DNA from: Candidatus Aminicenantes bacterium
GTDB lineage: Bacteria > Acidobacteriota > Aminicenantia > Aminicenantales > Saccharicenantaceae
Assembly (NCBI GenBank): GCA_014360015.1
Contig: JACIYJ010000003.1
Location: forward strand, 6,197-70,196
Length of the DNA: 64,000 nt
Reading direction: 5' to 3'
The notes beneath the pieces are model-generated. The model did no database searches, was not told the origin of the DNA, and worked only from the letters and a program-made list of their open reading frames with translations. This document shows positions 19,887-62,296 of the stretch, piece by piece. A program made the translations under genes and the position numbers. Every line of letters starts with the position of its first letter. The stretch's first letter is position 1.

Positions 19887-20834
19887 ATGAAAGCCAATAA
19901 ACTATATCAGGCAGCTGAAAAAGCCATTTTTCAGTCCTTAAAACTTAAACCAAAAGAAAGCTTTCTCCTGGTCACTGACAAACAGAAGATGGAAATCGCT
20001 GAAGCTCTGGCTTACTATGCCAAAAAGGCTGGAGCGGAAACCACAACCTACCTAATGACTGAAACTCTGAGGCCTATTACTGAGCCGACCAAACTGTTCA
20101 AGCTGCTGACCGAAAAAGCTGACGTCATCGCTTATCTGCTGGATGCCAGAATAGAAGAGAAACCTTTCCGCGGTTTTATGGTCAGTCAGGGAATGAAGTT
20201 CAGCCGGATCTGCATGATGCCAGGAATTACCCGCGATATGATGGAAAGACTGGTCAACATCGATTTTGCCAAGATGAATGAGTTCACCAAAAAAGTTATC
20301 AGGGCTCTGAAAGATGCCGATAAGGTCATCATTGAAAATCCAGACGGGACAAACATCAGCTTCAGTGTGAAGGGCAGAGAATGGCATAACGACAATGGCG
20401 ATATCAGCAAAAAAGGCAAACACGGTAATCTGCCTGCTGGCGAGTGTTACACCTGCCCGGTGGAAGAAACCTTCACCGGCAAGCTGGTCATTAGCCTGAT
20501 TGATGATAAGCTGGGTTATGGCGAAATGGAGTTCAAGGAAGGCAAGCTGGTTCGCTACAAGGGCAAAGGAATCGAAGCCATTGTCAAAAATATTGGTTCG
20601 GATGAAACCGGATTTATGATTGGTGAGTTCGGTATCGGTACTAACCCCGGGGCTCGCATTTGCCCTAACATGCTGGAAGCAGAAAAAGCCTTCGGCACCG
20701 TGCATTTTGCCATCGGTGATTCTTACGGAATCGGCAAGAACAAAAGTAAGCACCATTATGACGCTCTGATAGATAAAGTAACTATTATCGCCAAAGGCAA
20801 ATACATCGCCAAGAGCGGCAAGTTTTTGATTTAA
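19887..20834 (+). CDS. putative aminopeptidase (M29/PepS-like), cytoplasmic
   Basis: 315 aa; N-terminal region resembles M29 aminopeptidase openings; immediately downstream of the OPT peptide importer. Family assignment is by weak recollection. Confidence 0.45.
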   Translation: MKANKLYQAAEKAIFQSLKLKPKESFLLVTDKQKMEIAEALAYYAKKAGAETTTYLMTETLRPITEPTKLFKLLTEKADVIAYLLDARIEEKPFRGFMVSQGMKFSRICMMPGITRDMMERLVNIDFAKMNEFTKKVIRALKDADKVIIENPDGTNISFSVKGREWHNDNGDISKKGKHGNLPAGECYTCPVEETFTGKLVISLIDDKLGYGEMEFKEGKLVRYKGKGIEAIVKNIGSDETGFMIGEFGIGTNPGARICPNMLEAEKAFGTVHFAIGDSYGIGKNKSKHHYDALIDKVTIIAKGKYIAKSGKFLI

Positions 20835-21321
20835 GTTTCCCCCAGGTTAATTTTCAGGCTTCAGATAAAGTTATCATCAGATAAAAATAAAAGGAATTTA
20901 TCTCAAATTTAAAAAAAGTTTTCTGAGTTTAAAGAGGGAACATTATCAGGATTAGAGTCCCGGGCTGCCTGGACTCCGGATAGCCACCATTCTTATCCTC
21001 CCAGCTATCATCCTGGATATAATCTCCAGAAGAGTGAAATTCTGGCCTTTAAGTAAACTTTAATTGTCTCCTGGCCTTTTTGTCGCAAACAGCTGCTGAC
21101 CAGAATTTTAATTAAGAGTTCTGGCCCGAACACAAGTTTATAATTTTTTAAGAGCGAAAATTAAATCTTTTTATTCTCTTCCCCGGCTGGTTTTTTATTA
21201 CTTCTATAATTTTTATTATTTCCTTTTCAGGTAGTGGGATATTTATTTATTAATTTCCGTCTATATTGTTGATGTTTGACTTCCTCTTTTGCCAGCAGCT
21301 TCAGCAACCATTAACTTTTTT

Positions 21322-21337
21322 TGGCACACTTCTTGCT
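21322..21337 (+). promoter_or_regulatory. sigma-54 (RpoN) -24/-12 promoter TGGCAC-N5-TTGC
   Basis: TGGCACacttcTTGCT at 21322-21337 matches the YTGGCACGrNNNTTGCW consensus in both GG and GC elements with exact spacing; 27 bp upstream of the ATG at 21364, followed by AAAGGAGG RBS at 21351-21358. Confidence 0.6.
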
Positions 21338-21363
21338 CAAATACAGGGTGAAAGGAGGTTAAC

Positions 21364-21585
21364 ATGAAAAAGGCCATTGCTTTAACACTGTCAGCGATTT
21401 TTATCATCTCGGTTTTTCTGCTTATTCCCAGAACTTCTCAGGCCGCTTTCAATGCAGATGCCTGCTGGGATAACTGGGAAAGATGCAGAACCCGGGCCCT
21501 CGAGTCTGACCTGGGCGTAATCAGAACTACTCTGGCCCTAACTGCTTGCGACATCGCTCTGGGCAAATGTTTACTGACTAATTAG
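21364..21585 (+). CDS. small Sec-secreted Cys-rich peptide (73-aa precursor; about 46-aa mature peptide with twin CX6C motifs)
   Basis: Strong RBS; signal peptide MKKAIALTLSAIFIISVFLLIPRTSQA with AxA cleavage site; mature AFNADACWDNWERCRTRALESDLGVIRTTLALTACDIALGKCLLTN with 4 Cys arranged as two C-x6-C pairs. Confidence 0.6.
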   Translation: MKKAIALTLSAIFIISVFLLIPRTSQAAFNADACWDNWERCRTRALESDLGVIRTTLALTACDIALGKCLLTN

Positions 21586-21647
21586 AACTGAAGGGAGTTC
21601 CGGTCGGAACTCCCGGTTCTCAAATTTTAGTGAGAAAGGAGTCTGAA

Positions 21648-22631
21648 ATGAGTAACTTAAAATTAGCGGCGGGAATTATGGTTATAATCCTTCTCACAGG
21701 CTTTATTAATTTACAAGCAGCTCAAATCCTTGTCCTTGGAGTAAAAGAGATTAGTTTAAAAAACCCTGAAGGCCGTCCTTTTTTCTACAAGCCCTCAACT
21801 ATACTATTTGACCATCAGGAGTTATACATTGCTGAATCTGGAGAAAGCAGGATACAGGTTTACAGTCCGGATGGACAGCTGAAACGCTCCATAGGCGGGA
21901 AGGGCAGAGGGCCAGCTGAATTTGATACGTTAATTGGCCTGGATCTTTTCGAAGACCAGATTTATGCTGCTGATTCTTTTAATAGTATGATAAAAATATT
22001 CGATAAAAATGGGAAATATCTTGGGGGTTTTAAGACTCCTTTTAATCCGGTTAATGTCGTTGTTTTGAATAAAGAGAAGATTTTGGTTACTAACAGGCCT
22101 TCGCCCCGGGTTGATTCTGAAAAGCTGGTTTACTGTTATAACTCAAAAGGTCAACTGCAGTGGAAAGCCATTGATTCTTCCCCCGCTCAGGACCGTATTT
22201 TTTACACGCTGATTAACGAGATTCTCTTGAAAAAAGATGATGCTGGGTATTTTTATCTTATCTGGAAATATCAAAATAAATACATTCTTAAAATTGATCG
22301 AAATGGTCAGATAATCGAAAAAATTATGCTTGATTCTCGATATCCCTTTAAGTGGGTTGACCTGCCCCTAAAAAACGGGAGACAACCAATTACCTCTGTT
22401 TGCTGGAACTGCGCCAGGGATGATAATAAATTTTATTTTATTGCCCCGGCCTATACTGAAGATGGAGATATCGGGCCAGGTAAAGAGGTTTTGGTAGTTA
22501 ATGAAAAAGGGCAGATTTCAGGGATTATTAAGTTTCCCCACGCTCTTAGACTTCTGACGATAAATGGGCAGTTCGTCTATGGAATCGACACCGAAGATGA
22601 ACTTCATCTTTATCAGCTGGAGGGCAGATGA
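21648..22631 (+). CDS. secreted NHL-repeat six-bladed beta-propeller protein
   Basis: Repeated NHL-like blades (IYAADSFNSMIKIFDKNGKYL; GKGRGPAEFD...). N-terminal hydrophobic signal/anchor. ATG at 21648 with AAAGGAG RBS; the track ORF starts at GTG 21630. Confidence 0.7.
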   Translation: MSNLKLAAGIMVIILLTGFINLQAAQILVLGVKEISLKNPEGRPFFYKPSTILFDHQELYIAESGESRIQVYSPDGQLKRSIGGKGRGPAEFDTLIGLDLFEDQIYAADSFNSMIKIFDKNGKYLGGFKTPFNPVNVVVLNKEKILVTNRPSPRVDSEKLVYCYNSKGQLQWKAIDSSPAQDRIFYTLINEILLKKDDAGYFYLIWKYQNKYILKIDRNGQIIEKIMLDSRYPFKWVDLPLKNGRQPITSVCWNCARDDNKFYFIAPAYTEDGDIGPGKEVLVVNEKGQISGIIKFPHALRLLTINGQFVYGIDTEDELHLYQLEGR

Positions 22632-23125
22632 AAAAATTAGTTTATCTGGCAGCTCAATTAATGATAGTTATGATTCTTTTTTCGCAGAGCAGTTCGCCAC
22701 CGGTTTTTGCCGCACCAGTTTTTGCCGGACAGCAGGTAACCGCTCCATCAAGCCAAAAAATGCCGGCCAGAATCTACTCCTCCATAGAGGAAATTGCGGA
22801 CAGCTCGACCCAGCCGATTCTTCTGGTATTTTTCTCACTGGTTTGCCATGTTTGCTGGGATGAACTGTTTGAAATGAAAGATTTTATTGAAAAATTCAGT
22901 TTGCCGGTGATATTAATTGGGATATCGGCTAATGAAACAGAAGAACTCCAAGCCTTTGCTTCCAGATATTCCTTTACCTATCCCCTCATTCAGGACAGAG
23001 ATAACAGTTTAAAGTTAAGCTGGAACCATATCGGGTCATACTTTATAACCATCAGCTGGTCTATGCTGATGATTATCTGCTTGACTATCAAACCAGGAGG
23101 GATAGAGCCAAACAATGTTTACTGA
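22628..23125 (+). CDS. TlpA/ResA-like periplasmic thioredoxin-fold thiol-disulfide oxidoreductase
   Basis: Signal peptide; Trx-fold pattern PILLVFFSLVCHVCWDE (CxxC = CHVC) followed by the FTYPLIQD region typical of TlpA-like redoxins; 4-nt overlap with the propeller gene. Confidence 0.65.
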   Translation: MKKLVYLAAQLMIVMILFSQSSSPPVFAAPVFAGQQVTAPSSQKMPARIYSSIEEIADSSTQPILLVFFSLVCHVCWDELFEMKDFIEKFSLPVILIGISANETEELQAFASRYSFTYPLIQDRDNSLKLSWNHIGSYFITISWSMLMIICLTIKPGGIEPNNVY

Positions 23126-23852
23126 ATCTCGTTTCAAAACTAACTTCTTTTTAATCCAGAAAAAGGTATTAAGGTCCAGGAGCTTATATTTCCTGAGCTT
23201 GGTGCCACTGCTTGCCGTTCTTTATGTTTTTCTTGCAGATTCCTTGACCACAGCCATCCAGTTTTTCCTGTTTCTTTTTCCCTACCTCTTTCTGTTTATT
23301 TCCAGCGATATGATGAAAGACGAAATTGAGAGTGGAGTTCTGGAAAATATTATTTTTCTCAGGGGCGAATACCGTCGTTATTTATTCCAGAAAAATCTGA
23401 TTCTGTTGATTTTCGCCCTTCTCCTTTCCACCTCAATTTTCTCTGCTCTGATCATAGCCGGATTGCTCAAGGGAATTTTCACCTGGCTTTATCTTTTACA
23501 ATTTCTGGCAGGAATTGTGGTCGGGGTTTATTATATTGCCCTTAGCGGCTGGCTGAGTTTTTATTTCCGGGGTGGCTCCAATGTAATGATTATCATCATT
23601 GCTCAGGTAATGGCCATATTATCGCTTTTCTTTTCCCTGCAGGAGAGGGCTGGCTTTTTAGATTATTTAGAGAAAGGCCGGTTCCCTGATCTGATGGCTC
23701 AACTCAAATTTCTTGTCTTCGCTCTGGCCTTTCCCAATGTTCTGACTTTTAAAAAATTCTTAACTTATTTCATTATAGTCGCGGTGGCCGCCAGCCTCTT
23801 TTTACTCTTGCAGTGGCTGCGAATAAAAAATCTGGAGTTGAAAAAACAATGA
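23115..23852 (+). CDS. polytopic membrane protein, probable ABC-2-type transporter permease
   Basis: 245 aa, about 6 TM helices; overlaps upstream and downstream genes and sits immediately before the ABC ATPase. Confidence 0.45.
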   Translation: MFTESRFKTNFFLIQKKVLRSRSLYFLSLVPLLAVLYVFLADSLTTAIQFFLFLFPYLFLFISSDMMKDEIESGVLENIIFLRGEYRRYLFQKNLILLIFALLLSTSIFSALIIAGLLKGIFTWLYLLQFLAGIVVGVYYIALSGWLSFYFRGGSNVMIIIIAQVMAILSLFFSLQERAGFLDYLEKGRFPDLMAQLKFLVFALAFPNVLTFKKFLTYFIIVAVAASLFLLLQWLRIKNLELKKQ

Positions 23853-24552
23853 GCGACATTCTGATCAGGTCAATCAACCTTAGCAAAAATTACGGGAAAA
23901 TAAAGGCTCTGAAAGAAGCCAGTTTTTCCATTAAAAGAGGGACCATTACTGCCTTTCTGGGGGAAAATGGAGCTGGTAAAACTACCACCATCAAGATTCT
24001 CCTTGGTTTTCTTAAGCCTGATTCCGGACGAGTTGAGATAAATTGTTTAAAACTCGGCTATGTTCCTGACCGCCCGCTTTTTTCCCCTGGGTTAAAGGAA
24101 AGGAGATTCTGGAAATTACAGCCAGACTTTTTGGAATTAATGGGCAGAGGCTCAACCACTTAATAGAAGAAAAAAGCATCAGAATCGGATTCGATCCGGC
24201 TCTATTAGAACGACGGGTCCAGACTTATTCTATGGGAAATCAGAAAAAAATGTCTTACCTGCAAAACTTAATTGTCTCACCGGAGCTCTTTATTGTAGAT
24301 GAACCATTCGCTGGCCTGGATCCGGTTTCCATTAAATTGGTCCGGGATCTTTTTCTTGACCTGAAAAAGGAAGGTAAAACTCTTTTCCTTAGTTCTCACC
24401 TTATTTCCGAGCTGGAAAAAATCTGCGATGAAGTGGTGATTATCAGAAAAGGGCAAATCCTTCTTGAAGACAACAGAGAAGACCTCAGAAGCAGAGGTCA
24501 CACTGACCTTGAAGCTTTGTTCCTGTCCATACAGAATCAACTGTTGGCTTAA
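23813..24552 (+). pseudogene. ABC transporter ATP-binding protein, disrupted by a frameshift (fragments 23813-24163 and 24232-24552)
   Basis: Fragment 1 has Walker A GENGAGKTT. Fragment 2 has the signature/Walker B MGNQKKMSYLQNLIVSPELFIVDEPFAGLDP. The second frame is open back to 24070, so the shift maps to the T6C4 homopolymer at 24078-24087. Confidence 0.6.
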
Positions 24553-24973
24553 TAAGAACCATCATAGAAAGGAAGTAAAGCAACTCCAAAACAGTTTGAC
24601 CGACTTCAGTTTGATTTTTAAATCAAATTTTTTATAAAGTCCCTCAATAAATAAAAATCTTTCGCCAGACCCAAATTTTCAACTAAGTTTTCCAGAGTTT
24701 CTCCATAGGTCTTATCTTTTAAAATTAATTTTTGGTATCGGGTCAATAGGCTAAAACTAGCCAGATAATAAACCCACTGATCGCCCCTTCACTCAGGCAA
24801 ACAATTTCGTATCGATTTTGAACAAAACTATTTGCCTATTGAAATTAAATTTTTTATTTAATAGAATCATTAGCTCTCCGAGTCCTGCGGGCTAAAGCCT
24901 AAGGCCAGGCCTCTGGACCGATAGGGTGAAGCTGGAAACGGCTTTGCCTCCCATTTTGGAAAGGAGGAATTAT

Positions 24974-26902
24974 ATGCCCTACCACAAAAAATTTTCCCAA
25001 ACTCTATTAATCAGCTTAATCCTTTTTCTGGCATTATTATTCGCCATGGATCCCACCTTTGCCCAGGTAAAGAAAAAAGAGGAAAAAGAGGAGAAATTAG
25101 CCAGAGCCAAAACTGAAGAAATCTTGGTCACAGCCACTGCTCCTCAGGAAAAACCCTTAGCCACAGTCTCAACCATTGAGCCTGTGACAGTTGCTCTTCT
25201 TCAAACCCGGAATATTTCTGAAGTGCTTTCTTTTGCTCCTGGAACCTATGTGACTGTCGGCAGTAAAGCCGAATCTCATGCCAAAATCAGAGGGCTAGAT
25301 AATGACAAATCTACCCTCTTACTTGACGGCATACCGATATATGAACCATATTTTAACCTTTATGATCTGAAAACAATTCCCAGCGTGGATGTAGAATCAA
25401 TTCAAATAACCAAAGGTTCCTCTTCCGTGCTTTATGGAGCCAATACTCTGGGAGGAATAATCGAGGTGCTGACTCGCCGTCCCCAAGAAAATTCTCTGGA
25501 ACTGAAATCCAGGCTAAGCCAGAATTCCAGTTTCAATTTCTCCGGTACAGGTTCCTACACTGCCCGCAGATTTTCTCTTAAGATTTCAGCTTCCCACGAT
25601 GAGTCTCAGGGCTATAAAGTCAAAGAATCAGGATCGACCCAGCTACTTAAAAATTCAGATTATAAAAATAACTTTTTCAACGGGAAATTTTATTTTTATC
25701 CTGGAGAAAAAAGTGAGCTTCTGCTCCAGACCTCATATTATAAATCATCTTATGGCATTCCAGCCCCTACGGCCTACTATTCCCCTCGCTATTGGCGTTT
25801 TAAAGATTGGGAAAGATGGGTTATTGGCCTGGGTGGGACTTTTCCCCTCTTTAAAAACGGGACCCTTAAAATTAGAACTTATTATGTGAAATTCTATAAT
25901 ATTCTCGATTCTTATACCGATCCTTCATTCAGCACTCTCAACTGGGAATCTACTTATGATAATTACGAAGCCGGTGCCTTCCTTCTCGGTGCTTTTAGCC
26001 TGAATTCAAACAATGAACTTCGGTTTAGTTTTAACGGCCGACTGGAACATGTCAAGCAACAGAGTTCAATTACTTCTCCCTGGGAATTATATGAGCACAA
26101 AATTTTTTCGGCCGGAGTCGAAGATGAATGGCAGCTGGCCTCAAAATGGCACCTAATCGGGGGCTTCAGTCTGGACCACCTGAAAAAACAAACAGGAAAT
26201 GAAAAAACATCAGTCAATCCTATAGCCGGCCTGAAATTCGGTCCTACCGAGTATTTAAATTTTCACCTTTCCTTCTCTCGAAAATCGCGATTCCCTTCGA
26301 TGCGATCTCTGTATAGTTCAACGAGCGGAAATCCTGACCTTAAAGATGAAAGCGGAACAACCTTAGAGTTTGGAACAGCTTATTCCGGTTGGGTAAAGGG
26401 CAACCTGGCCATCTTCAATTCAAACTTCAGAGATCTAATTTCTGTGGTTCGCCAGCCTGACGGAACAAAAAAATATATCAATATTGGCAAAGCGGTGATA
26501 AATGGTCTGGAAGTAGAAATCTCAAAAACCTTAGCTAATTTTAATTTTCAGATCAATTATACTTTCCTTAATGCCAGAAACTTAACTGACAATCGCAGGC
26601 TGGACCTGGTACCGAAATCTCAGGCGAGCTTCCTGGTCAATTACTTCAAAAAAGAAAACTTCAGTCTGGCTTTATGGGTCTTGACAGCTTCAGATGCTGA
26701 AATTTTAATCAATCAAACTATGGTTCAGGTTCCTGCCTATTTAGTCGCCAATATTTCGTTTGAAAAAAACCTCAAAACCGGTTCTCTCTTCTTTAAGATT
26801 GAAAACCTTTTCGATAAGGCATATTACACTGAACCGGGCTATCCTGCTGCCTGTCGCCGCGTCGAGGCTGGATTTAGTTTCAGATTCGGTTCTAGGCTCT
26901 GA
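24974..26902 (+). CDS. TonB-dependent outer-membrane receptor
   Basis: Signal peptide; plug-domain motifs (LDGIPIYEPYFN...ITKGSSSVLYGANTLGGIIEV); C-terminal beta-barrel ending in an aromatic residue. ATG at 24974 with AAGGAGG RBS; the track start at 24926 would put the RBS inside the coding sequence. Confidence 0.75.
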   Translation: MPYHKKFSQTLLISLILFLALLFAMDPTFAQVKKKEEKEEKLARAKTEEILVTATAPQEKPLATVSTIEPVTVALLQTRNISEVLSFAPGTYVTVGSKAESHAKIRGLDNDKSTLLLDGIPIYEPYFNLYDLKTIPSVDVESIQITKGSSSVLYGANTLGGIIEVLTRRPQENSLELKSRLSQNSSFNFSGTGSYTARRFSLKISASHDESQGYKVKESGSTQLLKNSDYKNNFFNGKFYFYPGEKSELLLQTSYYKSSYGIPAPTAYYSPRYWRFKDWERWVIGLGGTFPLFKNGTLKIRTYYVKFYNILDSYTDPSFSTLNWESTYDNYEAGAFLLGAFSLNSNNELRFSFNGRLEHVKQQSSITSPWELYEHKIFSAGVEDEWQLASKWHLIGGFSLDHLKKQTGNEKTSVNPIAGLKFGPTEYLNFHLSFSRKSRFPSMRSLYSSTSGNPDLKDESGTTLEFGTAYSGWVKGNLAIFNSNFRDLISVVRQPDGTKKYINIGKAVINGLEVEISKTLANFNFQINYTFLNARNLTDNRRLDLVPKSQASFLVNYFKKENFSLALWVLTASDAEILINQTMVQVPAYLVANISFEKNLKTGSLFFKIENLFDKAYYTEPGYPAACRRVEAGFSFRFGSRL

Positions 26903-26924
26903 TTACAAGTTGAGGAGGAGTCAC

Positions 26925-27968
26925 ATGAAAAGAAAGCGTTTAATCAGATATTTTTTCTGTAATCTTTTACTTACTGGCCTTCTTATCTGTCTGCCAATCA
27001 ACGGCCAAGAGACTTCACCACCGGAAAATAATGATTTCTATGATAATGAGCCTTTCCTAAAACTTCCCCTCCCGACAATTGAAATAAGCGGTGAAGTCCT
27101 CCGAACCGGTCCTGTAAATCTTAAGAGTCTTCCTTTACATCAGGTTCAGGTTCGTGAAGCCCGGATGGAAAATAATAAGGCTGTTTTTGTTGGAGCTTAC
27201 GTTTACCTGGGATATTCCTTGTTCGATATCCTCAGAGAACAACCCCTGTCCAAAAAAAATAAAGAACAATTTTCTTCACCCATTGACCTTCTGGTCATTA
27301 TTGAAAATAAGAAAGGCGAAAAAGCTATTTTCAGCTGGGGAGAGATATTCTATCCAACCGTACTTCATCGTATCATCATCGCCGTCAGAGTAGCACCTAT
27401 TGTACCTTCTTCAACCAGAGAATCCTGGCATCTACCAGAAACGAGTAAAGTTGTGGCAGCTAATGACCTTTACTCTGAACGTAATATAGAAGACCCGGTT
27501 CGAATTATAGTCCGTTCCTGTCCTCTTTCTCTGGACTTTAATAAAGGCAGAACTCCTTTATTTTCAGAAAAAATCAAATTTTTAAAACAGGGCGAGGAAA
27601 AAGGAGTAATAGATGATTTGCCTGAGGCCATAACTTCTCTGACCCTGCCAGCGGTCTTTTTCGGTCGGGGGCAAGGATTCCATGGAATAAAGTTTTTTAC
27701 TGGAGTCCCCCTGCGATTGGTTCTTAATAATTTTTTCCCTATCGGCAAAGATGATTTAAAGGCTGGATACCTGGTTCTGGTGGCCGCGGATGGTTATCGG
27801 GCTGTTTTTTCAATCTCTGAAGTCTTTAATAGAAACGACTGCCAGGAAATAATCCTCTGTGATCAGGGACACAGAGATGGCGGACGATTCTCTATCTTTC
27901 CGGCACCTGACTTTTTTTCAGATCGGGCTGTCAAGTCTCTAAAAGAGATTTATCTGTTTGATCGATAA
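26925..27968 (+). CDS. hypothetical secreted protein encoded directly downstream of the TonB-dependent receptor
   Basis: ATG at 26925 with GAGGAGG RBS; signal peptide; two internally similar halves. A distant resemblance to Mo-oxidoreductase-fold substrate-binding domains is speculative. Confidence 0.45.
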   Translation: MKRKRLIRYFFCNLLLTGLLICLPINGQETSPPENNDFYDNEPFLKLPLPTIEISGEVLRTGPVNLKSLPLHQVQVREARMENNKAVFVGAYVYLGYSLFDILREQPLSKKNKEQFSSPIDLLVIIENKKGEKAIFSWGEIFYPTVLHRIIIAVRVAPIVPSSTRESWHLPETSKVVAANDLYSERNIEDPVRIIVRSCPLSLDFNKGRTPLFSEKIKFLKQGEEKGVIDDLPEAITSLTLPAVFFGRGQGFHGIKFFTGVPLRLVLNNFFPIGKDDLKAGYLVLVAADGYRAVFSISEVFNRNDCQEIILCDQGHRDGGRFSIFPAPDFFSDRAVKSLKEIYLFDR

Positions 27969-28764
27969 TTAAATTTCGATTGCTCTGTTTACCGACAGTT
28001 TTGGTCTTCTTTTTAAAATAGCCCCAGGAAATTAAAATAGTGCGTTCGAAAAGCAATCTAAAACTTCGGGGTCTGTTTTGTTCAACTATCTTATTGCCAG
28101 GCCACCTGAGTTTTTAACTGCTGCTAAAAAGCTCGGGTTAAAATCGACATAAATTCAGGCGTTAGTACAAGGGAAATTCCCTTTACCACCAAGGATATCC
28201 TTCAGACAATTAAGATATTTTGCCAATAAATTCTGATTTTGTTTTAAAATTAAAAAGATTTTCCGCTCGTAATGCTCTGCAAGATATGAGGAGAGAATAT
28301 ATTCTTTACCTTGACCTTGTCCTGGCTGAATGTTTTATTGACCGTGACCCGTAGATAGCCAGGATATTAGCCTTTAAAGAGCTTGAATCTCTGATCAATA
28401 AACTTTATAAGGAGAGTTCGCCCCGGCATAAAATTTACCAGCCATCAATGCAGGATAAGCTTGAAGAGCTAACCGCGGCGAAAAGCTGCAGTTTATTGGG
28501 CTGCTCTTTAAGTTTTTCTCCGTGTTACAGCTGAAATTAGCCTAACTTCTTCCAAATTTTTATGAATTAACACCAGCCTTGAATCTAAAATCAACCCTGT
28601 TGAAAAGCAAAGTTTTCGGAAGATTAATTCAGGCCTATCTGTTGGCCATCAGTCGCTGAATTAAAGCAAAGTTACCTTCAGAAAAGACAGAGAAATTTTT
28701 TGTTGTAATTTTTCCTGTCATTAAATATAAATTTAAAGATTGAATTTAATTTGAGGAGCCAAGC

Positions 28765-35694: not shown

Positions 35695-36750
35695 ATGAAA
35701 AAGATAGGCCTAATTATCTTGCTAATTCTTTTAGCCATTGGAGTTCAACCCGAGATATATGGTAGCGAAATTCCAAAAGAAAAGGTTGTCCTGGTTAAAA
35801 AATTCCCAGAAGACGGGCTCCAAACTAAAGCTGTTCCGTGGATAGATGTTGATTCTAATGGCAATATTTTTGCAGTTGGAAATAGAGAACATTCAATTTT
35901 TAAGTTCAGCCCAGAGGGCAAACTGCTGTTAACTTTTGGCGGCTGGGGCCAGGGGCCAGGAGAGCTACAATGGCCAGCTTGGATTTCTATAAATAATGAG
36001 TTTAATCAGATTTTTATCATAGATAATATAGGAATTTCTATTTACGATTCTGAGGGGAAATTTATCCAAAAAATTAGAACTTTCATTCCTCCCTTAAGTT
36101 TATGTGCTACCCGTAACGGAGTTATTCTCTTACAACCAACTCCAGATAAAAAAGAGATGATAAACTATTATGACCGTCAAGGCCGGCTGATATTATCTTG
36201 TGGCGAAAAATATCAAATTGATTACTCATTAAGTAAAGAAATTCAGCCTGGTTACCTTGACCGGCTGGTTAATGATGGGAAAATATTATCAGATGGTAAA
36301 TACATTTATTATGTTTCGCATGTCTTTGGAGAAATTAAGGTTTTTGATTTTTCGGGAAAGTTAATCCTGAGGAAAAAGATAACGGGTATAAAAAACTTGG
36401 AGATGGTAAGGCGGGAATATGAAAAGCTATTTTTCAAGAATGGAATAAAAAAGAATAAAGACGGGACGATCACCACCCGATTAATTTTTGATGACTCATA
36501 TATATCCGGCCAAAACATATATTTGCTAATGCGTGGAGAAGTAGAAAAAGGGCCATCTGAAATATTATCCTTATCGAAAGATAATCTGGATATAAACGAA
36601 AGGTTATCCCTGCCCGAAGAAATTACACCCAAACATTTATGCATAATAAAACCAGCAGGCACAAATGGCGGTCTATTTCTCGTTGCTTTCTATGATAAGG
36701 TTAATGAAATTAATTTAATTGGAATTTTTAAAAAGGGGGTATCAAAATGA
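35695..36750 (+). CDS. secreted NHL-repeat six-bladed beta-propeller protein (paralog of 21648-22631)
   Basis: Signal peptide; NHL blades (GGWGQGPGELQWP...IFIIDNIGISIYDSEGKFI) alignable with the locus-1 propeller (GGKGRGPAEFD...IYAADSFNSMIKIFDKNGKYL). Confidence 0.65.
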   Translation: MKKIGLIILLILLAIGVQPEIYGSEIPKEKVVLVKKFPEDGLQTKAVPWIDVDSNGNIFAVGNREHSIFKFSPEGKLLLTFGGWGQGPGELQWPAWISINNEFNQIFIIDNIGISIYDSEGKFIQKIRTFIPPLSLCATRNGVILLQPTPDKKEMINYYDRQGRLILSCGEKYQIDYSLSKEIQPGYLDRLVNDGKILSDGKYIYYVSHVFGEIKVFDFSGKLILRKKITGIKNLEMVRREYEKLFFKNGIKKNKDGTITTRLIFDDSYISGQNIYLLMRGEVEKGPSEILSLSKDNLDINERLSLPEEITPKHLCIIKPAGTNGGLFLVAFYDKVNEINLIGIFKKGVSK

Positions 36751-39439: not shown

Positions 39440-40900
39440 CTTGCTATGTCAAGGGTGATCATATTTTATCTTCTGTTTCGCTAATTAATTCATTCTTAAT
39501 TCTTATTTTAGGCCCCTAATCTCATAATTAAAGATTCAGTCATGGCAATATAATGTTTTTCGTGGTTATAAGTTTTTCCTTCTTTCCATAATTTAAATAA
39601 AATCTTTATCCAAATGTTTCCAACGCAGCGGAGAGCATGATAGTGTTTTTTACCTTCTTTCCTTTTGCGGTCATAATAAAGGCGGGCCCAGGGTTGATAT
39701 AAGAGCGTTGAATAAGCCAATTGGGTAAACAGATCTCTAGCCCATTTGATACAACCCTTCCGGAAATGAACGAACCTGAATTTACCACTCTGATATGTAG
39801 CGGGGCTCATTCCGGCAGCTGCTTGAGCTTCTCGAAAATCCTTCCATTCGCGGTGATAAAAATAAATTAATATTCCGATACGACTCTTAAGGCCTAGGCC
39901 TTTAATCCCTTCCAGGGGCCTGAGTTCTTCTACCTCTTCACTGGCTTTCTCTAACCTCTTCTCATAATCTTTGATTAATCTTCCTATTTGCAGTAGCTGC
40001 TGGGTGATAGCTTGAGCCAGATGGCTTCGAACCTCTACCAGAATAGGACGGACTTGAAAAGAGGAGCGCAAGTTTTCGTATACCTTCAATGCATAAGAAT
40101 CTGAATAAACATGTAGGGTCTCAAAGAAAGCTGTAAGATCTGAGAGGGAAAGCTGTTGAGCCTCTCGTGAGGTAGGATACCTTTTTAGAAAAGCTAAAGC
40201 AGCAGGAGAAAAAGGATCCTCAAAACAATTAAGGAAAGCAGGATAGTACTCTTTAAGGACAGAGGAAAGTCTATTCTTTAGTCTGGTCTGCTCCTTCAAA
40301 AGAACTTCCAAGTCATTCCATAAAAGCTTCAAACGCTCCACCTTCTCTGGCAAAGGTTTAATCAACGGCAAAGAATTTTTATCACTCCGCAAAACTTGTG
40401 CTAACACATAGGCATCAAACCGGTCATCCTTGACTCTGCTGCTTTTATACCTGCCTCTGAAAGAAGAAACGCGGTTAGGATTAAGCCAATAGAGTCTGTA
40501 GCCCTGGCTTAATAAAAAATCAACCAGAGGAGAACGATAAGTCTCAATAGCCAACTCAATCTCGGGGTAACAGCGAGCTCGCTCAAGGAGTTCATAAAAC
40601 CCTTTGCTCGTTTTCTTAATGGAAAACTCTTCCAGCACCTTTGCCTCTTGGTCGACAAAACAGACCTGAAAACTTCTGTCTGACCAGTCAATCCCTCCGT
40701 AAACCATATTACCTCCCTTAATTTAGTGTGGTAGAATACGGATGGTTAGAAAATCGCTTTATATGGGTCTTCTTTTCCTGAAAGAGGAAAAGAGACATCT
40801 TGCTATGGATTTTCAAACCAGGGGTGAAGAGACAGTTTAACCCAGGCCTGAAGGCAAGACATGGTAGGTCTTCTTCACCCCTTATCATCCTAATAATCCT
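39440..40900 (-). mobile_element. IS110-family insertion sequence (approximate boundaries)
   Basis: Contains the intact transposase (39508-40707) plus an upstream structured region with two inverted-repeat hairpins (40768-40796; 40821-40833 with 40868-40881), as is common upstream of IS110-family transposase genes. IS110 elements lack obvious terminal IRs, so the ends cannot be set by eye. Confidence 0.5.
39508..40707 (-). CDS. IS110-family (DEDD) transposase
   Basis: 399 aa; N-terminal GIDWSDRSFQVCFVD (DEDD_Tnp_IS110) and C-terminal ELRPLEGIKGLGLKSRIGILIYF and MSPATYQSGKFR (Transposase_20) signatures. Confidence 0.85.
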   Translation of the reverse strand: MVYGGIDWSDRSFQVCFVDQEAKVLEEFSIKKTSKGFYELLERARCYPEIELAIETYRSPLVDFLLSQGYRLYWLNPNRVSSFRGRYKSSRVKDDRFDAYVLAQVLRSDKNSLPLIKPLPEKVERLKLLWNDLEVLLKEQTRLKNRLSSVLKEYYPAFLNCFEDPFSPAALAFLKRYPTSREAQQLSLSDLTAFFETLHVYSDSYALKVYENLRSSFQVRPILVEVRSHLAQAITQQLLQIGRLIKDYEKRLEKASEEVEELRPLEGIKGLGLKSRIGILIYFYHREWKDFREAQAAAGMSPATYQSGKFRFVHFRKGCIKWARDLFTQLAYSTLLYQPWARLYYDRKRKEGKKHYHALRCVGNIWIKILFKLWKEGKTYNHEKHYIAMTESLIMRLGA

Positions 40901-55921: not shown

Positions 55922-57283
55922 TTAATTTTTCATCCGGTCCAGACCGTATTTTTTAAGCAGCCGAAAAAGTCCCTGTCGAGTAAGACCGATAGCTGCCGCA
56001 GTCCTGGCTCGATGATAATTAAAATGTTTCAGCGCTTCGCCCAAAAATTTTTTCTCAAATTCGGCTTTAGCCTGGGAATAATCCCAGGAGTTGCGAAGCG
56101 GTTTCTCACGGGCATTCCTGATGGCCGGAGAGAGGACCTCTTCCTCAATAACCCGCTTGTCGCCAGCAAGAACTAAACAGCGCTGGATTTCATTCTGAAG
56201 CTCCCGGACATTACCTGGCCAATCATACTTGAGCAAAAGTTCCAGAGCTTCAGGGGAGAAAAAGGTTCGCTCGCGGTTCATTTCCTGACAATAGCAGTCG
56301 AGAAAGTGGTTGATGAGCACTAAAATATCTTCGGGCCGTTGGCGAAGCGGTGGAATCTCGATGGCAATGATTTTTAAGCGGAAGTAAAGATCTTGACGAA
56401 AACGGCCGGCAGCCACTTCCTGCTCTAAATTTTTGTTGGTGGCACTGATAAAACGGACATCAACCCGACGGCCGCGATTTTCACCAAGACGTCTTATTTC
56501 TTTTTCCTGAAGAACCCGAAGCAACTTGGCCTGGAGTGGCAAGGAGAGATCGCCAATTTCGTCCAGAAAAAATGTCCCGCGGTGGGCTTCTTCCACCAGG
56601 CCCGGTTTATCGCGAAGGGCACCAGTAAATGAGCCCCGGGCATAGCCAAAAAGTTCGCTTTCTAAAAGATTGTCCGGGATAGCACTGCAGTTTACAGCCA
56701 CAAATTGACCCTGGTGGCGCCGTCCCGAATGGTGAATGATTCTGGCAATCAGCTCCTTACCTGTCCCGCTTTCACCGGTAATGAGCACCGGTGAGTCAAC
56801 ATTTTTTACCTTCTCTATTAATTCCCGAATGAGTTTGAAGGATTGGCTTATTCCCAGAAACTCCAGGTCTTTTTTTTCACTCCTGAGGCCGATTTCTCCT
56901 GGCGGAGTGCTTTCCTGAGATAAAAGCTTGACCACAGGCAGGGCTGAAGACAGAATGTCAATTTCCTGTTCGGTAAAACGGGGCTCGCTTTTTCGCTTCT
57001 CAAGATAAGCATAGCCGTACAATTTTCCCTGAGAGATAAACGGATAGCAGACAACGAGCACATCCCGACCATGGTTAGCTCTGGCAATAACGGGCTCTTT
57101 CATAGAGAGAGCTTTATTGACCAGACCCGACCTTTCTCCTTCTTCCACCCCGGGCTTATTTCCTTTTAATTGCTGGAAAAAAGGACGCTGGCGATGGTCA
57201 AAGGCCACTATTTGAAAATAGTCAGCCCGGACGGCTTCGATGATGACATCGAACATTCTGGAAACCAGTTCTGACCTGGACAT
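55922..57283 (-). CDS. sigma-54-dependent transcriptional activator (GAF-AAA+-HTH, Fis family)
   Basis: 453 aa; Walker A GESGTGKELIARIIH, GAFTGA-type loop (ESELFGYARGSFTGA), C-terminal HTH_8; N-terminal GAF-like sensor. Confidence 0.85.
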   Translation of the reverse strand: MSRSELVSRMFDVIIEAVRADYFQIVAFDHRQRPFFQQLKGNKPGVEEGERSGLVNKALSMKEPVIARANHGRDVLVVCYPFISQGKLYGYAYLEKRKSEPRFTEQEIDILSSALPVVKLLSQESTPPGEIGLRSEKKDLEFLGISQSFKLIRELIEKVKNVDSPVLITGESGTGKELIARIIHHSGRRHQGQFVAVNCSAIPDNLLESELFGYARGSFTGALRDKPGLVEEAHRGTFFLDEIGDLSLPLQAKLLRVLQEKEIRRLGENRGRRVDVRFISATNKNLEQEVAAGRFRQDLYFRLKIIAIEIPPLRQRPEDILVLINHFLDCYCQEMNRERTFFSPEALELLLKYDWPGNVRELQNEIQRCLVLAGDKRVIEEEVLSPAIRNAREKPLRNSWDYSQAKAEFEKKFLGEALKHFNYHRARTAAAIGLTRQGLFRLLKKYGLDRMKN

Positions 57284-59479: not shown

Positions 59480-60841
59480 ATGCCAGGATTTGAGTTAAAA
59501 AGAAAAGATCTTCATCGGTCGGAAAGCTTTTACCAGAGGATCATTCTTTTTGGTTTTATTCTATTCCTGACTTTGATGCAGGTGCCAGGACTGCTGGCTC
59601 AAGAAAGTGACCAGACAAGTAAACAATCAATCGAAGATTTGAAGAAGACCGCACCGAAGGTTTATATCGACTGCGGTTCCTGTGACCTGGATTACATCAA
59701 AACTGAAATTCCTTTTGTTAACTACGTGAGGGAACGGAAAGAAGCTGATGTTCACGTGCTGATAACCACCTTGAGGACGGGAAGCGGCGGTCGGGAATAC
59801 ACCTTGACCTTTCTCGGCCAGAACAAATTCCAGGGCCAGGACGATGTGCTTAAATATTTCTCTCACAAAACAGATTCGGAAGAAGAAATTCGGGCGGGGC
59901 TGACCCAAATCTTAAAAATCGGCCTTATGGCCTACGTGGCTAAAACTCCTATTAGGGAGAAAATTGCAGTTGATTATCAAAAAGAAGCCACGTCGTCGAC
60001 CCCATATGTTGACCGCTGGAAAAACTGGGTCTTCAGCTTGAGCTCCGGCGGTTACTTTAACGGAGAGCAATCTCGTGCTTACCAATCTGTGCGGGGGTCG
60101 TTTTCAGCCAATAAAGTAACCAAAGACATAAAATTCAACCTTAGCCTGAGTGCCTCCTACAGCCATAACCGATACACTTATGAAGACCTTACCCTTGAAT
60201 CGAACACCCGTAGCTACAGCGGAAGCGGACTGTTTGTTAAGAGTCTGGGAGAACACTGGTCAGCCGGAGCCTTCTACTCTATCTCCTCTTCAACTTACAG
60301 CAATTACCAGCTAAGGATTAATGTAGCTCCTGCCATCGAATTCGACCTTTTTCCCTATTCGCAATCAACCAGGCGACAACTGAGATTCCTTTATAAGATT
60401 GGCCCGACCTTCGCCCGTTACTTCGAAGAAACCCTTTATGACAAGACTAAAGAAACTCTGGTATCTGAATCACTGTCCATCACGCTTGACCTAAGGGAAA
60501 AATGGGGCAGCATCAGCACTTCTATCGAGGGCTCACACTACTTCCATGATTTCAGCAAACACAACCTGTCTGTTTTCAGCACTGTTTCTTTGAACCTGGT
60601 CAAAGGGCTAAATGCCTTCGTTTTCGGAGGAGCTTCTCTCATCCATGACCAGCTGTCATTGCCCAAGGGTGGAGCTACCTGGGAAGAAGTTCTCCTACGG
60701 AGGAAAATGTTGGCCACCAGTTATAGTTACTTCTTTGCTGTTGGCTTAAGCTACAACTTTGGTTCAATTTTCACCAACGTGGTCAACCCCCGCTTTGGTT
60801 CGGTGAGCAGCGGCGGGGTACAGATAATGATTGGTGATTAA
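59480..60841 (+). CDS. hypothetical secreted outer-membrane-like protein, paralog A (N-terminal alpha/beta domain plus C-terminal beta-rich domain)
   Basis: 453 aa; signal peptide; alternating-hydrophobic beta-strand pattern; C-terminal ...NVVNPRFGS motif shared with the next gene. Confidence 0.5.
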   Translation: MPGFELKRKDLHRSESFYQRIILFGFILFLTLMQVPGLLAQESDQTSKQSIEDLKKTAPKVYIDCGSCDLDYIKTEIPFVNYVRERKEADVHVLITTLRTGSGGREYTLTFLGQNKFQGQDDVLKYFSHKTDSEEEIRAGLTQILKIGLMAYVAKTPIREKIAVDYQKEATSSTPYVDRWKNWVFSLSSGGYFNGEQSRAYQSVRGSFSANKVTKDIKFNLSLSASYSHNRYTYEDLTLESNTRSYSGSGLFVKSLGEHWSAGAFYSISSSTYSNYQLRINVAPAIEFDLFPYSQSTRRQLRFLYKIGPTFARYFEETLYDKTKETLVSESLSITLDLREKWGSISTSIEGSHYFHDFSKHNLSVFSTVSLNLVKGLNAFVFGGASLIHDQLSLPKGGATWEEVLLRRKMLATSYSYFFAVGLSYNFGSIFTNVVNPRFGSVSSGGVQIMIGD

Positions 60842-60874: not shown

Positions 60875-62296
60875 ATGAAGGCTGAAAAAATAATAAAAGA
60901 TAAACAATTAGAGAAGGTATCCCTCGTAGTAAAACCTGCCAACCTGGCTCGTCCATATCCAGACAATCAAGATTTTGATCAGAATGATTTCAGAGACTTT
61001 CTCTTGCTCAGGAATAACGTGTTTATCCTCATTCTTTTATTGGTCTTGATATCTACAGTCTTGATTATTAGGCCGGCTCTGGCTCAAGAAAATCAGGAAA
61101 AATACCTGGTTGAAAAATTGCTGGTTTATGTTGACCCGTCAATTGGTGCTTCTGAAATTTTTGAAAAAAACATCCCATTCGCCAAATTTGTGTCTGATCC
61201 GGCTGAAGCCAATGTCATAGTGGAAATCAGCAGAACGGTAAAAGAAGGGCAGGAATATTTTCAGATAAAATTCACAGGTAAAAATGAACTGAGTGGCAAA
61301 GATTATTTTTCAGAGCTAACTCTTCCACCTAACACTGAACCAGACCTGGTACAGAATGAACTGGCCCGAATGATAAAGCTGGGGTTGGTCCTTTATGCTG
61401 GAAGGACGCCCGAAGCCAGCAGGCTTAAAATCAGGCTCGAGCAGGAAGTTAAACCCACGGCGGTGGTGGACCCCTGGAATTTCTGGGTCTTCAGCCTGAG
61501 TGCCAACAGTTTTCTTAACGGAGAGAAAAGTTATTCTTATGATAATTTTTACGGAAATTTTTCGGCCAACAAGGTCACGCCCGAGTGGAAAATAAGGCTT
61601 TCGCTGAGCGGAAATTACTCCCGTGATGCCTTTGATTATGAAGGCACGAGTTATATAAGTTCTTCTACAGGCGGGAGCTTCCGGGCTCTGGTAGCTAAAA
61701 GCCTTGGAGAGCATTGGTCGGTAGGGGCTTTTATCAACATTACCAGCTCCACCTATCAGAACATAAAAATATCAGGTAAAATCTCTCCGGCTGTTGAGTA
61801 CAACTTCTTCCCCTACTCTGAATCTACCAAGCGCCAGCTGCGGCTAACCTACAGCTTAGACGTGGGGCCAGCCTATTATCGGGAAGAAACCATATTTGAT
61901 AAAACCAGGGAATTCCTGGTCAGAAACAATTTATCCATTACCCTGGAGCTTAAGAAAAAATGGGGCACCATCAGCTCCTCAGTTGAAGGCTCTCATTACT
62001 ATCATGATTTCAGCAAATACAGAATTGAGTTCAATAACGATATTTCGGTGAGATTGTTCCGCGGCTTTTCAGTCAACGTCTATGGCGGTTATGCCCGGAT
62101 ACATGATTTGATTTCCATTGCCAAGGCTGGGGCCTCCTGGGAAGATGTGCTGCTGATGAGAAAGCAGTTAGCCACTTCTTATAATTATTACTTCTCTGTT
62201 GGTATCAGCTATTCCTGGGGTTCTATTTACAGCAACGTGGTGAACCCCAGATTTGGCAGTGGCAGCTCCGGCTTCTCCATGAGCATCAGCTATTAA
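60875..62296 (+). CDS. hypothetical secreted outer-membrane-like protein, paralog B
   Basis: 473 aa; colinear similarity to paralog A (e.g. WKNWVFSLSSGGYFNGEQS vs WNFWVFSLSANSFLNGEKS; SLGEHWSAGAF vs SLGEHWSVGAF; NVVNPRFGS shared); GAGGAG RBS. Confidence 0.5.
   Translation: MKAEKIIKDKQLEKVSLVVKPANLARPYPDNQDFDQNDFRDFLLLRNNVFILILLLVLISTVLIIRPALAQENQEKYLVEKLLVYVDPSIGASEIFEKNIPFAKFVSDPAEANVIVEISRTVKEGQEYFQIKFTGKNELSGKDYFSELTLPPNTEPDLVQNELARMIKLGLVLYAGRTPEASRLKIRLEQEVKPTAVVDPWNFWVFSLSANSFLNGEKSYSYDNFYGNFSANKVTPEWKIRLSLSGNYSRDAFDYEGTSYISSSTGGSFRALVAKSLGEHWSVGAFINITSSTYQNIKISGKISPAVEYNFFPYSESTKRQLRLTYSLDVGPAYYREETIFDKTREFLVRNNLSITLELKKKWGTISSSVEGSHYYHDFSKYRIEFNNDISVRLFRGFSVNVYGGYARIHDLISIAKAGASWEDVLLMRKQLATSYNYYFSVGISYSWGSIYSNVVNPRFGSGSSGFSMSISY

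Follow-up and report, generated by a model that had tools for sequence, protein, structure and literature searches.

The 64,000-nucleotide stretch of Candidatus Aminicenantes DNA that is analysed here (part of contig JACIYJ010000003.1; the whole stretch is called the window) contains a forward-strand segment, at 21322-21585, in which a sigma-54-type promoter, retained at this place throughout a bacterial class, stands directly before the gene of a small exported peptide with two C-x6-C cysteine pairs. This promoter-gene pair heads a cassette whose further members encode an NHL beta-propeller, a CxxC thiol-disulfide oxidoreductase and, in many species, an ATP-binding cassette (ABC) exporter. 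The promoter, the gene, the fold class of its product and the cassette are assigned with high confidence. The interpretation that is favoured, as a probable one with ample room for doubt, is that the cassette is an envelope module switched by sigma-54 and its activator, in which the peptide, a helical hairpin, serves as the abundant client or effector of a thioredoxin-NHL pair that is split between two genes. A more specific proposal, that the hairpin is transcribed together with a split thioredoxin-NHL redox module and serves it alone as client or effector, and that the whole is a previously undescribed sigma-54-switched redox or stress system specific to the Aminicenantes, is tentative and rather doubtful. 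The original prediction, which was made from the sequence alone, dealt with the promoter and the peptide; the cassette context (propeller, oxidoreductase, exporter, terminator-like hairpin and frameshifts) was absent from it.

The promoter and its conservation

The elements in and around the peptide gene are as follows.

21322-21337, + strand: putative sigma-54 promoter, TGGCACacttcTTGCT, with the GG of the -24 element at 21323-21324 and the GC of the -12 element at 21335-21336
21347-21349, + strand: predicted transcription start, about 12 nt 3' of the GC element, placed by standard sigma-54 geometry
21352-21358, + strand: Shine-Dalgarno sequence AAGGAGG, with GGAGG at 21354-21358, 5 nt before the ATG
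21364-21585, + strand: peptide gene of 73 codons, with signal codons at 21364-21444 and the predicted mature 46-aa core at 21445-21582
21584-21620, + strand: GC-rich hairpin, terminator-like or an attenuator, immediately after the stop codon; ucaaauuuua follows it

The site at 21322-21337 is very likely a sigma-54-dependent promoter. It is composed of TGGCAC (21322-21327), the spacer acttc (21328-21332), TTGC (21333-21336) and a final T (21337), and it equals the published sigma-54 consensus TGGCAC-N5-7-TTGCT (PMC12316311). The original prediction had placed a TGGCAC-N5-TTGC motif with exact -24/-12 spacing here, 27 bp before a 73-codon gene with a strong ribosome-binding site, and both statements are borne out: 27 nt separate TTGC from the ATG at 21364, and the stretch from promoter to ATG, which reads tttTGGCACacttcTTGCTcaaatacagggtgaaaGGAGGttaacATG, includes the Shine-Dalgarno sequence listed above. 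A start near 21348 would give a 5' untranslated region of about 16 nt.

The motif is the sole exact TGGCAC-N5-TTGC in the window when both strands are counted; dinucleotide-preserving shuffles of the window yield a mean of 0.06 exact matches, with at least one match in 6 of 100 shuffles. When one mismatch is allowed the window has three sites where 3.56 are expected, which is the level of chance; two one-mismatch sites, TGGCAAtatttTTGC at 35859-35873 (+ strand) and TAGCACaagttTTGC at 40389-40403 (- strand), lie inside long open reading frames (ORFs), at 35695-36750 and 39508-40707 respectively. That single consensus matches do arise by chance in this way, and that the window contains no rpoN gene, are the points in favour of the alternative that the motif is not a functional promoter and that the peptide gene is transcribed by a housekeeping sigma factor or by read-through from the M29 peptidase gene upstream.

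What decides against this alternative is the behaviour of the motif across related loci. The comparison set consists of 28 genome loci and 32 metagenome loci of the peptide gene, which are partly redundant and are referred to by L numbers; the metagenome loci come from a scan with 10 sequences of the family alignment. An exact TGGCA[CT]-N5-TTGC ending 26-28 nt before the ATG is found in 24 of the 27 distinct orthologous upstream regions from genomes, the other three having one mismatch each, and shuffled upstream regions contain a mean of 0.005 matches. Over more than 45 loci, which range from AT-rich to very GC-rich, high information upstream of the peptide gene is confined to the GG and GC elements and the Shine-Dalgarno sequence (columns -14 to -7, 1.6-2.0 bits across the orthologues), the spacing being kept and the flanks being unconserved; even very GC-rich relatives with unrelated flanks keep the motif. 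It is present in most of the metagenome loci, two divergent subgroups lacking it. In the 542,607 nt made up by the window and the related loci, again partly redundant, 48 of the 49 exact sites stand directly before a twin-CX6C gene. The upstream neighbour differs by clade, being either an OPT transporter with the M29 peptidase or urocanate hydratase (hutU), and the motif persists beside both. A simple scan of the + strand of the 529-nt gap between the M29 gene and the ATG detected no sigma-70-like site. A non-functional motif is accordingly regarded as extremely improbable.

The one exact site that is not next to a twin-CX6C gene (L012:11448, + strand) lies downstream of a homologue of a 402-aa ORF which is described below, and it may be another sigma-54 promoter. 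An Rfam scan of 20500-22000 gave nothing above noise, and no known riboswitch or small RNA was detected in the long intergenic region.

The peptide and its predicted fold

The peptide gene encodes MKKAIALTLSAIFIISVFLLIPRTSQA followed by AFNADACWDNWERCRTRALESDLGVIRTTLALTACDIALGKCLLTN, the predicted cleavage point lying between the two. The Sec signal and the 46-aa core with two C-x6-C pairs that the original prediction described are confirmed from the ORF at 21364-21585: the N-terminus is of the Sec type, with MKK, a hydrophobic stretch of about 19 residues and the sequence SQA/A (the slash marking the predicted cut), and the remaining 46 residues contain CWDNWERC and CDIALGKC, which place cysteines at positions 34, 41, 62 and 69. 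The mature core would have a mass of 5.09 kDa and a pI of 4.9, the mean net charge of the family being -1.

The family is small and narrow, comprising about 60 sequences, all from metagenome-assembled genomes (MAGs) of Aminicenantes type. A word-index search returned 24 homologues of 71-76 aa, which, where a source is named, are all annotated as hypothetical proteins of Candidatus Aminicenantes or Saccharicenans MAGs, and a profile search of 1.84 billion proteins returned only 41 cluster representatives. Pfam-A and NCBIfam contain no family that matches the peptide at E <= 0.01, and a sequence profile search of the PDB gave no match. Nine of the loci (L003, L013, L017, L020, L021, L023, L026, L027 and L029) carry the record labels "uncultured Eubacteriales" or "Clostridiales bacterium" despite a cassette and synteny of Aminicenantes type, and these labels are probably wrong.

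The earlier picture of a secreted twin-CX6C helical hairpin, compatible with stapling by disulfides, has gained support from the Sec-type signal and from the following observations. The four cysteines are invariant, with their spacing kept, both in the close set and in the diverse set of 41 sequences. The core is under strong purifying selection, with a median ratio of nonsynonymous to synonymous substitution rates (dN/dS) of 0.12 over 105 pairs. AlphaFold, given the family alignment, predicts a helix to residue 47, a turn at 48-50 and a second helix at 51-72, with a predicted local distance difference test score (pLDDT) of about 95 in the core; helix 1 is drawn as continuous through residues 2-47. 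The sums 34+69 and 41+62 both equal 103; by this arithmetic the cysteines are placed as nested cross-links in an antiparallel hairpin would require, and C34-C69 as the outer and C41-C62 as the inner disulfide could form in such a structure. These results support a peptide that is an exported twin-CX6C helical hairpin, probably cut after SQA. A Foldseek search of the PDB with the peptide model gave no significant match and retrieved generic helical hairpins only, among them the plant peptides Luffin P1 and VBP-1, which we take to be alpha-hairpinins.

Some relatives have a second, paralogous twin-CX6C gene between the first one and the NHL gene (L005:6240-6476, L009, L010, L011, L014, L019, L021:216-449, L052:6315-6536 and L054); the window has no second copy. 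The second peptides of the Saccharicenans group end in a hydrophobic tail (for example CYILMAIMI), and the loci concerned are without ABC genes.

The downstream cassette

The genes that follow the peptide gene in the window are listed here.

21648-22631, + strand: six-bladed NHL beta-propeller of 327 aa, exported or anchored; intact; DUF5128 match at 8.4e-11
22628-23153, + strand: TlpA/ResA/StoA-like thiol-disulfide oxidoreductase (CHVC-W); AhpC-TSA match at 1.8e-10; its start overlaps the NHL stop by 4 nt
23115-23852, + strand: putative ABC exporter membrane subunit of 245 aa; intact; ABC-2-like by context
23849-24552, + strand: ABC ATPase of the DrrA/GldA/lantibiotic-protection type; split gene, both halves matched by ABC_tran and NCBIfam models

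The general gene order is peptide, second paralogous peptide in some species, NHL propeller, CxxC oxidoreductase and, often, ABC permease and ATPase. The peptide-NHL-oxidoreductase order holds in every sufficiently long locus, and the ABC genes are present in about half of the genome loci and in most of the longer metagenome loci. Both the NHL/oxidoreductase and the permease/ATPase junctions have a 4-nt overlap of start and stop codons, and translational coupling of the accessory genes is proposed.

The hairpin between the peptide gene and these accessory genes has a folding energy of -24.6 kcal/mol (z = -2.8). A strong hairpin occupies the same place in every locus that lacks a second peptide gene, the sequence of the stem differing each time, and where a second peptide gene is present a stem-plus-U-run terminator follows that second gene. 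The NHL start codons lie about 25-60 nt beyond the hairpin. Because a terminator-like hairpin follows the peptide gene or genes and the NHL gene starts shortly beyond it, the accessory genes would be reached by read-through and the peptide would be made in excess.

A word-index search returned five close homologues of the propeller. In the PDB it matches, by sequence, the NHL domains of Thin, TRIM71 and Brat (down to 1.5e-22), and its AlphaFold model (pLDDT 83) has NHL domains as its top Foldseek matches, at E of about 5e-12. Its orthologues keep only structural Gly, Pro and Asp residues and have no invariant or near-invariant Cys or His, and because of this pattern the propeller seems more likely to be a binding platform than an enzyme. 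The same lack of invariant or near-invariant His and Cys, together with peptide C-termini that vary and are not Gly, led to the rejection of an NHL enzyme of the peptidylglycine-lyase type as a candidate.

The NHL gene always co-occurs with the peptide gene, which is one of the points that could be explained if the peptide were a membrane-anchored small subunit, its N-terminal helix uncleaved and its hairpin displayed on the periplasmic face as the stoichiometric partner of the propeller, loosely as in amine dehydrogenases, whose small cross-linked subunits rest on their propeller subunits. The length of the hydrophobic segment (about 19 residues, more than is usual in Gram-negative signal peptides), the single continuous helix that AlphaFold draws through residues 2-47, and the conservation of the helix 1 surface residues D36, E39, R42 and R44 would all fit such an arrangement. 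Small residues at -3 and -1 (SQA/A, ASQA, SAA, SFA) nevertheless recur in many members of the family, though not in all, and the terminator implies an excess of peptide over propeller instead of a 1:1 ratio; moreover no cofactor-forming enzyme is encoded, and Trp is not conserved in the wider family. An anchored subunit is therefore considered unlikely. A distinct candidate, an amine-dehydrogenase-like small subunit with a Trp/Cys cofactor, was rejected on the variability of Trp in the wider family and on the lack of a radical-SAM or other maturation gene.

The oxidoreductase orthologues have an invariant C74-x-x-C77-W and an invariant cis-Pro motif, E138-P139, as well as an N-terminal signal or anchor; besides CHVC, the variants CYAC, CFTC, CQVC and CPVC occur among them. 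Their profile best matches StoA, ResA, MPT53/DsbE and YkuV (best E = 1.2e-5) and matches SOQ1 weakly (6.4e-3). ResA, StoA, TlpA and DsbE/MPT53 each serve one or a few specific clients with cysteine pairs. The cassette enzyme resembles them in its N-terminal anchor or signal, its CxxC and its cis-Pro (found in the orthologues and out of frame in the window), and it differs in being a divergent member of the group, in having a co-transcribed 46-aa hairpin as its proposed client, and in the absence of a CcdA/DsbD-type electron donor near the cassette.

The resemblance to these enzymes bears on a further alternative, namely that the peptide is a periplasmic thiolate chaperone for a metal (Cu(I), Zn or Hg) or for persulfide, whose cysteines would be kept reduced by the oxidoreductase and whose cargo would be exported by the ABC-2 system. 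TlpA/ResA-type enzymes are usually reductants that prepare metal-binding cysteine pairs, TlpA and ScoI reportedly being an example; periplasmic disulfides are less expected in anaerobic hosts; zraP provides a precedent for the sigma-54 control of a periplasmic metal-stress protein; and Foldseek returned a weak match between the peptide and 7vw1, a helical dimer of the periplasm that binds Cu(I) (probability 0.69, E = 3.6). This match is not significant, however, and the peptide has no His or Met ligands and no match to a known metal motif or family. Its i, i+7 cysteine pairs on opposed helices have the classic geometry of disulfide staples, and no metal-resistance genes are found nearby, so that a chaperone of this kind is quite improbable.

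Decay of the cassette in this lineage

Two of the cassette genes are frameshifted in the window. The oxidoreductase reading frame is disrupted near 23003-23010, apparently by a deletion of several bases between AGTTTA repeats. As annotated, the ORF stops at 23125, and the true C-terminus (FKVKLEPYRV...AKQCLLNLVSK, with LEPY as its cis-Pro motif) can be read on to about 23153 in a different frame. In the ABC ATPase gene a T run, at 24078-24083, has shrunk by one base (T7 to T6), which splits the gene; it is intact in L022, in L003 and in the sister-strain locus L034. The 165-aa oxidoreductase product also occurs in the sequencing runs SRR11866713, -14, -17 and -25, and the ATPase split is reproduced in Logan assemblies. 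A sequencing or assembly error was considered as the origin of both frameshifts and was rejected, given that the same products appear in at least four separately assembled runs and that the oxidoreductase lesion is not a homopolymer slip.

The sister strain (L034/L035, 96% nucleotide identity; L034:7930-10630) shows more extensive losses. Its promoter has AG in place of GG and GT in place of GC, and its Shine-Dalgarno sequence reads ATGAGG instead of AGGAGG; its NHL gene is truncated, its oxidoreductase gene is internally deleted and its permease gene is frameshifted. A 4-kb deletion corresponding to 24603-28689 of the window has removed a TonB-dependent receptor gene and the 402-aa ORF, and the peptide ORF is still 97% identical. 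Because these parts have been lost together in the sister strain, the promoter, the peptide and the accessory genes appear to form one functional unit, and the pattern argues that the promoter elements are retained only for as long as the unit functions. In the genome analysed here the module is probably impaired.

The candidate upstream activator site and the activator in the window

Promoters of this type depend on an activator, for which the original prediction offered two leads. The first was an upstream intergenic region of 520 bp that could hold activator sites. The gap is present, at 529 nt from the M29 gene to the ATG, and an alignment of the region between the M29 and peptide genes reveals a single conserved island besides the promoter and the ribosome-binding site, a block that is well formed in relatives and is degenerate in the window.

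21052-21103, + strand: candidate upstream activator site, degenerate here; counterpart of the block GGTAAA-N7-TTGTCA-N16-GTYAAC-N4/5-(G)TTGAC of relatives

The block was found by regular expression in nine related loci; in relatives it lies 220-270 bp upstream of the promoter, and its last part is a perfect 16-bp palindrome in several species. The loci adjacent to hutU have a related TTGGCA...TGAC...GTTGAC arrangement about 100 nt upstream of the promoter. These TTGAC-type repeats are probably bound by an enhancer-binding protein that is encoded elsewhere.

The second lead was a sigma-54 activator with a GAF sensor at 55922-57283. The ORF at these positions (- strand) does encode a genuine sigma-54 activator, with a Sigma54_activat match at 3.8e-68, an AAA lid, HTH_8 and a GSFTGA loop, and because such an activator is encoded in the window the organism can be taken to use sigma-54. 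The GAF part of the claim falls short, since for the N-terminal 113 residues the match to GAF_2 scores 23 bits (E = 9e-5), under the cut-off of 28.6. The implied tie between this activator and the peptide could not be upheld, as no sequence link between the activator and the peptide promoter was found and the two are 34 kb apart.

In a second clade (L020:1884-5792 and 13 other loci) the cassette is located downstream of hutU and of a divergent REC-GAF-GGDEF-type protein of about 660 aa. This neighbour was rejected as a cognate regulator, being beyond hutU, on the opposite strand and not a sigma-54 activator, and its position is read as synteny only.

Comparison with known systems

The systems that are closest to the cassette by its logic are the fused thioredoxin-NHL proteins, and the closest match to the peptide itself is the glycocin scaffold; membership fails in both cases.

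The peptide resembles the glycocins (sublancin 168, glycocin F, thermoglycocin) in being a small ribosomal peptide with two C-x6-C pairs, which here are predicted to be symmetric about the turn, and in the presence of a CxxC AhpC-TSA/ResA-like gene in every sufficiently long Aminicenantes locus. Sublancin and glycocin F have exactly the same C-x6-C spacing, set in a helix-loop-helix. These similarities are the basis of the main alternative, namely that the peptide is an unmodified, glycocin-like bacteriocin, a secreted antimicrobial hairpin whose disulfides would be made by the oxidoreductase and against which the ABC-2 system would confer self-immunity, as the LanFEG and DrrAB-type pumps do. 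Several features of the cassette agree with it: a structural gene followed by a leaky terminator, the duplication of the peptide gene in some loci, and matches of the ATPase halves to lantibiotic-protection, DrrA and PSM-export models. Published glycocins are helix-loop-helix peptides with two nested disulfides, and their clusters contain dedicated thiol-disulfide oxidoreductases of thioredoxin-like type and ABC transporter genes (PMC10125368; PMC12457901).

The differences are as follows. Glycocins have an S- or O-glycosyltransferase and a glycosylated residue, whereas no glycosyltransferase is encoded in the cassette or among its conserved neighbours, the peptide has no conserved site for such a modification, and the Ser48 of its loop is not conserved. 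The glycocin leader is of the double-Gly type and is cut by a C39-peptidase ABC exporter, whereas the present peptide has a Sec signal, no such exporter is encoded, and the cassette ATPase is a stand-alone protein without a peptidase domain. The inner cysteines are 20 residues apart here and 8-14 apart in glycocins, and no sequence homology between the peptide and the glycocins is detectable. The peptide also has a diderm anaerobic host, an obligatory NHL partner, for which the bacteriocin alternative leaves no role, and sigma-54-type control. Bacteriocins tend to evolve fast and to be patchily distributed; this gene is a syntenic, slowly evolving and vertically inherited core gene under purifying selection, and the peptide is more conserved than the accessory proteins (44% against 30-38% identity in L029). 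Finally, the mature peptides are mildly acidic, and the genes that would supply immunity are missing from about half of the genome loci. An antimicrobial role is rather unlikely in view of these points.

The favoured interpretation, that of a client or effector of a split thioredoxin-NHL pair, draws its model from fused proteins. NHLRC2 is a fused thioredoxin-NHL protein with bacterial homologues, for which no operon partner has been found and which has a CC(I/V)NC motif (PMC6107167), and SOQ1 has a small protein as its client in the thylakoid lumen (10.1101/2024.11.01.621559). The likeness to both is the association of a TlpA/DsbE-like thioredoxin fold with a six-bladed NHL propeller. In these proteins the two domains form one chain, thioredoxin before NHL, whereas in the cassette they are separate genes in the order NHL and then thioredoxin, with the 4-nt overlap; the motif here is CHVC-W and there is no C-terminal beta domain. 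The sequence similarity is marginal (5.9e-4 for NHLRC2 and 6.4e-3 for SOQ1), and the operon described here includes the gene of a candidate client.

Two further comparisons concern the promoter and the fold. The pspA operon, zraP and pilA have a -24/-12 promoter with a remote activator site before the gene of a short, highly expressed envelope protein, and a terminator follows pilA; the present locus is similar in having a sigma-54-type promoter before the gene of a small envelope protein. PspA, ZraP and the pilins have no relation to the peptide in sequence or fold, the peptide has no prepilin motif, and the activator gene is not adjacent. The alpha-hairpinins and the CHCH (twin-CX9C and CX3C) proteins consist, like the predicted peptide, of antiparallel helices stapled by two CXnC disulfides (for the CHCH fold, see PMC12114033). 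They are eukaryotic, have CX3C or CX9C spacing and rely on other biogenesis machinery, in contrast to the CX6C spacing found here, and no homology is apparent. Literature searches on Aminicenantes with sigma-54, on DUF5128 and on CX6C glycocins found nothing.

Proposed mechanism

From the sequence and the structural models we infer sigma-54 dependence in vivo, cleavage of the signal, pairing of the cysteines in disulfides, interaction among the peptide, the NHL protein and the oxidoreductase, and a biological role for the whole, in the following scheme. The sigma-54 holoenzyme would sit on the GG and GC elements as a closed complex until an ATP-dependent enhancer-binding protein, encoded elsewhere, opens the promoter, and transcription would start near 21348. 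The short leader with its consensus Shine-Dalgarno sequence would support strong translation of the 73-aa precursor, which would be exported by Sec and cut, probably after SQA, to a 46-aa product folding as a helix-turn-helix that C34-C69 (outer) and C41-C62 (inner) can staple. The hairpin after the stop codon would let part of the transcripts into the accessory genes and so leave the peptide in excess. In the periplasm the NHL propeller would act as a docking platform and the oxidoreductase would set the redox state of the peptide cysteines, an ABC-2 exporter being added in many species. The whole would be a split periplasmic thioredoxin-NHL module with its own small cysteine-containing client or effector, inherited vertically in the Aminicenantes.

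A number of observations weigh against this scheme. With respect to regulation, the window has no rpoN gene, the upstream block is degenerate in it, and a tblastn search with the window activator detected no activator gene within 6 kb of the cassette in the 28 genome loci. With respect to the peptide, the turn that AlphaFold places at 48-50 is about 2.5 residues away from the centre of cysteine symmetry at 51.5, and the hydrophobic signal segment is long, at about 19 residues, and may be an uncleaved anchor. With respect to the partner proteins, the NHL protein is nearer to TRIM-type NHL domains (1.5e-22) than to NHLRC2 (5.9e-4), the CxxC is CHVC and not CC(I/V)NC, and the scheme does not account for the ABC-2 exporter. 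In addition, the cassette is decaying in this lineage and may be non-functional here.

Significance

Sigma-54 regulons outside the Proteobacteria are known mostly from predictions. The promoter-gene pair, which accounts for 48 of the 49 exact sites in 0.54 Mb, provides an anchor from which the sigma-54 regulon of an uncultured class, and the target of one of its activators, could be defined. The peptide represents an unannotated family of exported, putatively disulfide-linked hairpins that is always found alongside an NHL propeller and a CxxC oxidoreductase.

NHLRC2 is essential in mouse embryos and is mutated in FINCA disease, and its clients and those of plant SOQ1 are poorly understood. With a candidate client named by a bacterial operon, the question of thioredoxin-NHL clients would become testable with three small recombinant proteins. 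If the client interpretation is correct, the cassette would be the first bacterial thioredoxin-NHL pair with an identifiable partner and could serve as a model for proteins of the NHLRC2/SOQ1 type; if the bacteriocin alternative were true instead, an anaerobe of Gram-negative type would carry a relative of the glycocin scaffold that depends on Sec and is not glycosylated. The decay series, in which the cassette is intact in most species, has two frameshifts in the window and has lost the promoter, the ribosome-binding site and the accessory genes in the sister strain, amounts to a natural experiment, and it appears to link the promoter, the peptide and the accessory genes as one functional unit.

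Other features of the window

Two adjacent ORFs of about 450-470 aa, at 59480-60841 and 60875-62296, match no Pfam family at E <= 0.01, and the permease at 23115-23852 likewise has no Pfam family. The cassette is followed, at 24926-27968, by the gene of a TonB-dependent receptor (Plug and barrel) and by the 402-aa ORF, which has no Pfam family. In L007 and L012 the oxidoreductase gene is directly followed by the same pair of receptor and ORF; the locus L008 is truncated and shows the receptor only.

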